Shown here piece after piece: positions 1-1,566 of a DNA stretch of 64,000 nucleotides. Every line of letters starts with the position of its first letter. Position 1 is the stretch's first letter. The DNA is taken from positions 41,924 to 105,923 of IMG/VR virus record IMGVR_UViG_3300035696_000019. The stretch is one strand, 5' to 3'. Origin of the DNA: a virus. The notes below the pieces were generated by a model, which was not told the origin of the DNA, made no database searches, and worked only from the letters and a program-made list of their open reading frames with translations. The position numbers and the translations under genes were made by a program.

Positions 1-361
1 TCATTTTTCGCGCTGTCGATTCTACGATCGACTGATACACAAGCGCGTAAAAGATAACCAGCGTCCTTTCACACACAGTCGCGTCATACGCGCGTTTCTT
101 GCTCGCGAGCATATCAAGGTATTCCGATGCATACGCGCGCGCACCAGTCAGTGTTTCTGTAGTCGCTACGCGGTCGGAGATGTAACCGCTCGACTTTACT
201 TTGACGTAGTAGCGTGACTCCTGCTCACTCCAAAAGATCCACGCTATATCATGCGCACTGGATACATGCGCGACGATAGAATCAGACTTTGCGGTAAAGA
301 AAATTTTGCGCGCTGCATTAGCAATCATTGCGAGACGTTGCGCTTTAGTCATGGTGCTCAT
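1..361 (-). CDS. hypothetical protein, truncated at window edge (MSTMTKAQRLAMIANAARK...)
   Basis: Manually translated (not in the ORF track). ATG at 361 follows a GAAAGG RBS, and the frame stays open to position 1. Confidence 0.7.
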   Translation of the reverse strand, partial: MSTMTKAQRLAMIANAARKIFFTAKSDSIVAHVSSAHDIAWIFWSEQESRYYVKVKSSGYISDRVATTETLTGARAYASEYLDMLASKKRAYDATVCERTLVIFYALVYQSIVESTARKM

Positions 362-385
362 TTTAATATCCTTTCAGAATTAAAA

Positions 386-419
386 ATTAGTGACTGAATA
401 ATATTATTCAGTCACTAAT
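386..419. repeat. 34-bp perfect palindrome ATTAGTGACTGAATA-ATAT-TATTCAGTCACTAAT, overlapping an operator box
   Basis: Read directly from the sequence. Confidence 0.9.
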
Positions 420-425
420 GAGTTA

Positions 426-1208
426 TTATTTAGATTGGAATAGTCGCGCTACTTCACGCGCGATGTCGGAGTCCAGCAAAGTGATACTGTCTTTTGCTGC
501 ACCTTTTTTGATGCTCGCAACACCGATAAAGGACAGCATCATGCGCGTGCTACTGCACTGAGTCGATGCTGTCGACTCGCTGCAGTTGTGCAGTCGCTTT
601 ATATCCAGCGTCTGATCCATCGCATCGTATGTGATGCTGCTGCAAATCGTCATGCGCGCGCTTTTATTATCGACATAGTTCAAACGAATCAGATTCGATA
701 TGATAGAGCGCGAATAACCATCAAAACCGGATTTAATACCACTCGCGATAGCAAAAATCGCTTTGCGGATTTTTTGCACTGCGTAAATTGCAACAAAATC
801 CGCGCTGGACTTGTCTGTGATGCTGATTTTTTGCGCAAGCGCAAGCAGGTCGACATCCAGATCAAGCATCTTCTTAATCGCGAGCTTTGCAGCGCTTTTT
901 TCAAAAGCTTTACGCTCTGTAATAAAGCTGTGCGTCTGATTCGCGCACGGTGCGTGATCCGCGCGAGCTTGAAGCGACTCTATAAGAGCGGAATAAATCA
1001 TGTCGATTTTGTTTTCGTTCTTTTTTGCTGCGAGTGTCGCAGCGCGCTTTGCTGCGATTTCCGCTTTTTGCGTATCGGTCAAAGCTACTTTTTTAGCAGT
1101 AGTCTTTTTGACGCTTTTCTTTTCAGCAGTAGCGGAAACAACCGCATCGATAACGGTATCAACTGCTGTATCCACTGCTGTATCCACTGCTACGGTTTGC
1201 TTTTCCAT
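426..1208 (-). CDS. hypothetical protein with Ala/Lys-rich N-terminus and possible C-terminal winged helix
   Basis: ORF 426..1289. A GGAG RBS supports the MEKQTV start at 1208. Confidence 0.7.
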   Translation of the reverse strand: MEKQTVAVDTAVDTAVDTVIDAVVSATAEKKSVKKTTAKKVALTDTQKAEIAAKRAATLAAKKNENKIDMIYSALIESLQARADHAPCANQTHSFITERKAFEKSAAKLAIKKMLDLDVDLLALAQKISITDKSSADFVAIYAVQKIRKAIFAIASGIKSGFDGYSRSIISNLIRLNYVDNKSARMTICSSITYDAMDQTLDIKRLHNCSESTASTQCSSTRMMLSFIGVASIKKGAAKDSITLLDSDIAREVARLFQSK

Positions 1209-1327
1209 GATGCATATCTCCAGATAACGCGCAAAGGTGCGCACATCGATGCAGCGCGTTAGTGCGCTGTCGATGTAGTCACTATACACGCTTACTTTTC
1301 ATCTACAAAAAATATGTAGCTGAAAAC

Positions 1328-1534
1328 TTGACCTAGATCAATTTACAGAATGAGTTACAAATAACGCGCGGATTAACAACAAACGAACTGGATACCTGAG
1401 CGAATTACTCGGAATCGCAGAGCAAAGTTGATTTATGTCAAACAAACGAACGGTGTCGGAGTGAAAACGCGGTCTAGCTACTTGACAACCGCTAAAAGCA
1501 GCTCAAAAACGCTGTTTTTCTTGATATAAGTCAA
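1328..1534. promoter_or_regulatory. three FNR/CRP-family-like boxes TTGA(C/T)-N4-(A/G)TCAA at 1328, 1428 and 1521
   Basis: Each is 1 mismatch from the FNR consensus TTGAT-N4-ATCAA. Confidence 0.45.
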
Positions 1535-1566
1535 CAAAATCGACCGGTTTGACCAATTTTTAAGCA

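Follow-up and report, generated by a model that had tools for sequence, protein, structure and literature searches.

In one place, and in one place only, the genome of a large phage-plasmid is written without the trinucleotides GGC, GCC, GGG and CCC (GGS/SCC, where S is G or C). The genome is IMG/VR record IMGVR_UViG_3300035696_000019 (105,923 bp), of which bases 41924-105923 form the 64,000-nucleotide stretch analysed here (the window; plain coordinates are window positions). The word-free zone is a single leftward unit at the very start of the window, made up of a leader, a gene for a 260-amino-acid (aa) protein that resembles DNA-binding regulators, a palindrome, a 176-aa gene and a terminator. 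Selection maintains this ban on GG words at the level of the nucleic acid, in this one regulator unit only, and the ban is conserved among relatives with lineage-specific dialects. A sequence-only reading of the window had noticed the absence of the four words from positions 1-1566. This is correct and the gap is even longer: no word occurs between genome positions 41631 and 43490 (1,859 bp, window -292 to 1566), so that the left edge of the zone lies 292 bp outside the window.

How unusual is such a gap? Across the whole record the words are spaced 14.0 bp apart on average, and the zone is by far the longest gap; the runners-up (281, 248, 207 and 205 bp) all fall within the adjacent small genes. 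One account would be a gap due to chance, to the base composition of the region or to the recent acquisition of an insert with low G+C content, and the zone does have 44% G+C compared with 57% for the genome. However, 78 words are expected in the zone under an order-0 model and 31 under an order-1 model, and 2,000 dinucleotide-preserving shuffles of the zone gave a mean of 31.2 words (standard deviation 3.8) and never fewer than 17. Local composition therefore fails to explain the gap, which was the outcome on which the sequence-only reading had made its claim depend. Codon-permutation tests (see below) are significant in all lineages and the ban persists in homologues of 30-50% identity whose zones range from 33 to 52% G+C, all of which makes chance or composition extremely improbable. 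CC/GG steps overall are 3.6-fold depleted, while CG and GC steps are retained, as had been noticed from the letters, with GCGC and CGCG even enriched. APOBEC-like hypermutation was considered and rejected, as the flanks are word-enriched at the very border and AG and GA are not in excess. No plasmid or phage was matched by window 1-6000 in a megablast search. The zone and its parts are laid out as follows.

1-1566 (plus 292 bp leftward, to genome 41631), unstranded: zone free of GGS/SCC, from word counts and shuffles.

-169 to 361 (1-361 within the window), minus strand: second cassette gene, 176 aa, no family match; the terminator follows it at L001:1275-1304.

386-419, unstranded: perfect 34-bp AT-rich palindrome between both genes, a possible operator or bidirectional terminator; some relatives have a canonical parS here.

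426-1208, minus strand: gene for the 260-aa protein (phrog_4202/phrog_9272), with a Lys/Ala-rich N-terminal tail, a helical domain and a predicted C-terminal winged helix.

1209-1566, minus strand: non-coding leader and presumed promoter region of 358 bp with TTGAC-type repeats and, by direct reading, TTGA-N6-TCAA palindromes at about 1329-1342 and 1521-1534.

Is the purge a property of the encoded proteins or of the nucleic acid itself? When synonymous codons were permuted within each gene and words were counted at codon junctions, 13.3 words were expected in the 260-aa gene and 6.7 in the 176-aa gene; none is present in either, and codon-junction words are absent in every lineage tested. The leader, the intergenic palindrome and the terminator are likewise word-free, with a terminator stem built solely of CG and GC steps. 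Amino acid composition is altered too, the Gly/Pro/Trp counts being 5/1/0 in the 260-aa protein and 3/1/2 in the 176-aa protein, and the ribosome-binding sites inside the zones of relatives read GAGAG or GAGGT. The purge acts on nucleic acid rather than codons. The strong selection against a short GG(C/G) word that the sequence-only reading had proposed is supported by the codon-junction tests, by the altered amino acid composition and by conservation in diverged relatives. It is strong enough to strip Gly, Pro and Trp from proteins and to rebuild ribosome-binding sites and terminators.

Examination of related elements showed that the homologous locus does carry such a zone. About 20 related phage-plasmids of 105-118 kb have homologous cassettes (30-50% protein identity) with zones of 0.9-2.2 kb, and of 33 viral-contig loci of 12 kb, 22 have their longest word-free gap over the homologue (gap lengths include 2,247, 1,933, 1,565, 1,150, 1,082, 978, 943 and 918 bp). 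Zone borders are sharp, with word counts that reach 22-33 in the adjoining 200 bp. The complete genomes examined that have a zone have exactly one; these are the present genome, G002, Rhizobium phage RHph_X66 and Pseudomonas phage nickie. The zone of RHph_X66 is 786 bp long with a single CC. The zone of nickie, analogous and at the syntenic place, has zero GG or CC over 1,137 bp in a genome where their mean spacing is 7.6 bp; it also contains an unannotated 107-aa open reading frame without Gly, Pro or Trp, after CNR34_00146 (L083:4691-5014, nickie 104690-105013). No zone was found in SSU5, Cyrano or BUCTxx99, and SSU5_120 is partly purged at the syntenic place. Loci with an unpurged paralogue (L011 and RHph_X66) have a purged one about 3 kb away. 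The RHph_X66 protein aligns with the cassette family (hhalign E 1.7e-4); the matches of this family to the nickie protein (E 0.03) and SSU5_120 (E 0.24) are too weak for homology to be claimed.

The banned word differs between lineages. The present zone bans GGS, tolerates GGA and GGT and is purged on both strands. Most relatives allow GG solely as GGT, often within CGGT, and therefore ban GGV (V is A, C or G). RHph_X66 and nickie ban nearly all GG and CC, with proteins lacking Gly, Pro and Trp. Most lineages purge both strands equally, but some do not. In L013 and L014 (L013:5857-6776, L014:3147-4066) all 17 GG dinucleotides of the sense strand are GGT, and GGV is found 0 times compared with 12.7 expected over 919 bp, while the 35 CC of the same strand are not depleted; L028 resembles this pair. 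In L017 and L022 the sense strand has no BCC (B is C, G or T) over 1.1-1.35 kb, yet keeps 5-9 GGV. At least in lineages of these two types, the sequences indicate either reading of the word on a single strand or a process that has an orientation. Such one-strand purges speak against explaining the ban solely by palindromic restriction sites, protospacer-adjacent motifs (PAMs) of CRISPR systems or a duplex binder without polarity.

This bears directly on the first explanation that the sequence-only reading had put forward, namely that first-entering DNA avoids host restriction sites, PAMs or phosphorothioate-linked motifs. A restriction site or PAM would be read on the duplex regardless of strand, and that is not the pattern seen in L013/L014 and L017/L022. 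The word of 3 nucleotides is also far shorter than known restriction sites, and the GGT exemption matches no PAM known to us. Is the zone at least positioned to enter first? In all genomes it is 6.8-14.6 kb from terS, always toward the non-structural genes, and if a cos or pac site is next to terS, the zone could be among the last 6-13% of the genome to be packaged; the early genes that adjoin it are small and possibly anti-defence. Against this, genes of normal word density stand between terS and the zone (8.7 kb in the present genome; in five genomes the zone is always beyond the helicase), and the relatives are circular assemblies or of provirus class, where the position of the cassette in the record is arbitrary. 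The metagenome contigs show neither termini nor doubled depth, but their cover is low in depth and fragmented and cannot bear on DNA ends. With a purge that is local, so far from terS and in some lineages confined to one strand, avoidance in first-entering DNA is unsupported by these observations and we consider it unlikely.

If one strand can be purged, could the constraint lie in the RNA or in its synthesis? Clusters of G and C might be avoided because they would promote R-loops or pausing, load Rho or pair with the structured, GC-rich flanks. The purge roughly equals a transcription unit, L013/L014 purge the mRNA-sense strand only, and G and C are kept as bases while their clusters are removed, all as expected from such a constraint. 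It would not predict that most lineages purge both strands equally, nor that the purge of the present genome runs about 67 bp past the terminator, and the exemption of GGT is left unexplained. Rho avoidance as the sole cause was rejected, because TC, the main Rho dinucleotide, is not depleted. An RNA-level constraint is accordingly improbable.

The surroundings of the zone are as distinctive as the zone itself. On its right, small early genes alternate with word-rich spacers of 350-500 bp (54-127 words per kb):

1567-1937, unstranded: spacer at the border, where GGS/SCC words are at 127 per kb; it has five CCTAGG and copies of CCTCGGG/CCCGAGG.

1938-2234, minus strand: small early gene, 98 aa, 1 word; sigma-70-like promoter TTGAAG-17-GATAAT at 2270-2298.

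2235-2730, unstranded: spacer with four CCTAGG and the second copy of the conserved early promoter at 2607-2635.

2731-3165, minus strand: small acidic early gene, 144 aa, 2 words.

3607-3888, minus strand: small early gene, 93 aa, 7 words, with the bias fading.

The next two genes had been read as free of GGC and GCC, and they are: the first has one CCC, the second one GGG and one CCC. Also as read, the bias then fades rightward, the early genes holding 1, 2, 7 and 13 words in order (the last of these in 4242-4436). Each small early gene right of the zone is preceded by a conserved sigma-70-like promoter, TTGAAG/TTGTAA-17-GATAAT, with four minus-strand copies at 2270-2298, 2607-2635, about 3205-3240 and about 4470-4500. 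The promoter spacer is conserved too (GTGCCAATA(T)CCGGT), which suggests an operator within the early promoter. CCTAGG is 180-fold enriched in the flank spacers, which hold 15 of its 18 genomic copies, and CCTCGGG/CCCGAGG is about 60-fold enriched in the flanks; CCTAGG clusters also stand beside the zones of RHph_X66 and G002. An Rfam scan of window 1-9000 found no family.

On the left, the cassette converges on a rightward module ending in a helicase and two small genes. Just past the cassette terminator, 2-3 direct repeats with a spacing of 33-37 bp (up to 62 bp in L016) are found in 7 of 7 lineages inspected. The present genome has GGGYTGAAAGGGTGATGT twice at this border, and other lineages have TCCTTATACA-like, CCCCTTACACAACCA or TCCTTGTCTYGG repeats. 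The own pair consists of two 26-nucleotide direct repeats 35 bp apart with the core TGAAAGGGTGATGT, at genome 41547-41607 (L001:1124-1184), between the terminator of the rightward module and the zone border; analogous iteron-like repeats adjoin the zone in six relatives. The own repeat core contains GGG and the own zone tolerates GGA, while lineages with an AAGGA core ban GGA. The sequences thereby hint that the word dialect co-varies with the repeat core.

One sublineage (L015, L020, L021 and L023) has the canonical parS TGTTTCACGTGAAACA, perfect, inside its zones:

L015:6625-6640, one parS site.

L020:4699-4714, one parS site.

L021:6583-6598 and 7404-7419, two parS sites.

L023:6673-6688 and 7353-7368, two parS sites.

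In G002 (113 kb) the in-zone sites are the only two parS copies of the genome, and in the present genome a search that allowed up to 3 mismatches found no canonical parS. The distribution of sites suggests that the parS-bearing sublineage may borrow a host ParB.

What does the unit encode? The 260-aa protein belongs to phrog_4202/phrog_9272, a family with 112 cluster representatives. Its AlphaFold2 model has a pLDDT (predicted local distance difference test) of 91, and residues 158-264 align with many winged-helix regulators (VIA-align Z 7-8.3). The most conserved motif of the family, STASTQxSSTR, falls on the predicted recognition helix, and the family tails are Lys/Ala/Thr- or Lys/Ala/Pro-rich, histone H1-like. 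Judged from the model, the protein looks like a winged-helix DNA binder. Foldseek against the PDB returned nothing at E<=0.001 for it, Pfam gave no match, and a tblastn search of the 264-aa protein against cultured phages gave none either. Membership of the iteron Rep proteins (RepA/RepE, Rep_3) is not indicated, with no Pfam match and no RepE-like chain among the fold matches. Neither Pfam nor PHROG gave a match for the 176-aa gene, for the small early genes or for the genes that come second in the zones of relatives, and cluster names and the protein atlas give 'hypothetical protein' only. The N-terminus of the minus-strand gene (window 1150-1200) contains a tandem 12-nucleotide repeat, CTGCTGTATCCA, encoding (VDTA)n, whose core TATCCAC is DnaA-box-like.

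So who reads the word, and what follows a hit? What was observed is the purge, the fact that it acts on nucleic acid, its conservation, the predicted fold of the protein and the arrays in the flanks; from these we infer the answer to both questions. The explanation that we tentatively favour, as a possibility held well short of conviction, is that the unit is exempted in cis from a GG-word-binding regulator acting on flanking arrays. The cassette sits in the regulatory and maintenance hub of the phage-plasmid, and selection keeps it free of GGS (GGV or all GG in relatives); it would thereby escape a GG-word reader that acts at high density in its surroundings. This reader may be a DNA-binding regulator, either the winged-helix product of the cassette itself or a partner, that would occupy the CCTAGG and CCTCGGG sites in the early-gene spacers and the iteron-like repeats at the other border. 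Occupancy of these arrays would control the early promoters and plasmid maintenance, and a word-free unit, neither roadblocked nor titrating the regulator, would stay expressed. The second proposal of the sequence-only reading, a zone kept clear of a protein whose binding sites are the GGS-rich spacers alongside, appears on anatomical grounds to fit the locus better than restriction, PAM or first-entry avoidance does.

A regulator agrees with the anatomy and with the hint that the dialect goes with the repeat core; it accounts less well for so absolute a ban and for the lineages that purge one strand. Three points weigh against it. When a word of 3 nucleotides is banned completely and the proteins pay for this in their composition, one would sooner expect an event in which a single hit suffices (a cut or a blocking mark) than weak binding by a protein. 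The repeat cores do not contain GGC, which is banned all the same. Finally, L013/L014 purge the sense strand only and L017/L022 mainly the other, so that a duplex binder would need a polar effect.

On the first and the last of these points an enzyme does better. A strand-reading activity might mark or cut at GG(V). It could be a modification that the phage places on its virion DNA and that stalls RNA polymerase of the host, or else a nickase, a nuclease or an mRNA interferase, encoded by phage or host; the unit, which must be read first or must survive, would carry no target for it. An absolute ban fits a consequence that needs one hit, the purge spans roughly promoter to terminator, and the dialects (GGS, GGV, all GG) resemble the shifting specificity of an enzyme. 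The one-strand purges are accommodated, as is the graded purge of the neighbouring early genes. Such an activity fits the absoluteness and the one-strand lineages better than the regulator does, but it comes without an enzyme. The 105.9-kb record has no C5-methylase, N4/N6-methylase or TGT/DpdA gene (PF00145, PF01555 and PF01702, the classes searched for), and no candidate nuclease was found. DarT1 offers no lead here, since no consensus motif could be identified among its substrates (PMC11543638). Moreover, the conserved early promoters themselves contain GCC and CCGG, the GG-rich flanks are not accounted for, and the cutting version gives no reason why sparing one unit would help the phage. 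We regard a marking or cutting enzyme as possible, though doubtful. A broader form of the idea is that many tailed phages and phage-plasmids write the one regulator unit needed first without GG/CC, because a widespread strand-reading activity (marking, nicking or cleavage at GG words, with lineage dialects) hits the remaining DNA early in infection. This too is speculative; if it is true, the family of GG-word enzymes and its specificity could be predicted from the footprint that the zone would represent.

By sequence, the element as a whole belongs to the SSU5-supergroup phage-plasmids, together with RHEph10-like and Nickievirus phages: its TerL (61% identity to SSU5, 62% to nickie), portal (52-56%), helicase (41-45%) and DnaE (40-46%) are 40-62% identical to those of Salmonella phage SSU5, nickie and RHph_X66 and stand in the same order. 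It encodes terminase, portal and a tail module. Replication and repair genes comprise DnaE in two pieces, SbcCD, RecA, a gp32-like single-stranded DNA-binding protein, FEN, ligase, DnaB, primase and ThyA, and further genes encode a sigma factor, a CobS/CobT-like pair, ParA, two tyrosine recombinases and ParB-like proteins. The two pieces of DnaE are adjacent open reading frames (window 40180-41520 and 41633-43999), the downstream one with HHH_6 and a uracil-DNA-glycosylase-superfamily domain. The phage sigma-70-family factor, the ParA ATPase and the two tyrosine recombinases lie at window 44730-45389, 50092-51448 and 52253-53491, a set of genes that is consistent with a plasmid-prophage lifestyle. 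The only public runs that contain the record are two DNA runs from peat metagenomes, and no RNA run is listed for it. A 450-kb contig of a Paraburkholderia metagenome-assembled genome (NZ_JASGFN010000003.1, 354055-364609, our locus L085) has a homologous cassette with a 911-bp word-free zone, and together with the peat source this Paraburkholderia cassette is a possible clue to the host.

The zone shows where regulation and maintenance are concentrated in a large family of phage-plasmids that has received little study, and conservation of the ban in cultured phages (nickie and RHph_X66) makes a reader of GG words directly testable at the bench. In the published literature searched, no description of a GG/CC-word ban in an expression unit was found. 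Which known systems come closest? The first-step-transfer (pre-early) DNA of phage T5 reportedly has no EcoRI sites, and the likeness is clear: a word is absent locally, not genome-wide, from the early-gene block of a siphophage of about 100 kb. Here, however, the word has 2-3 nucleotides, its absence costs Gly, Pro and Trp, it is strand-specific in some lineages and it covers a single regulator unit; moreover, a logic of host restriction is unsupported. Messenger RNAs without ACA resist MazF. As in such transcripts, a very short word is wholly absent from one transcription unit, as if one hit were fatal, but most lineages here purge both strands and some non-transcribed DNA as well, and we know of no nuclease that matches a GG-word ban.

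Iteron and centromere hubs of plasmids, including ParB-parS, resemble the locus in that a winged-helix gene adjoins 2-3 direct repeats at a spacing of about 35 bp, relatives have perfect parS inside the unit, and the genome encodes ParA, ParB-like proteins and tyrosine recombinases. They differ in that the present protein has no Rep_3 or other Pfam match and one detected winged-helix domain, and its genome has no canonical parS; to our knowledge, no such hub is written without a dinucleotide. Phage DpdA is said to insert 7-deazaguanine at specific motifs (GA and GGC in CAjan), which provides a word of 2-3 nucleotides in a G context that is read by a phage enzyme, unlike the present genome, which has no TGT/DpdA homologue. 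Local avoidance of motifs is known for restriction sites of 4-8 bp; in these phage-plasmids a word of 2-3 nucleotides is banned across a whole expression unit.
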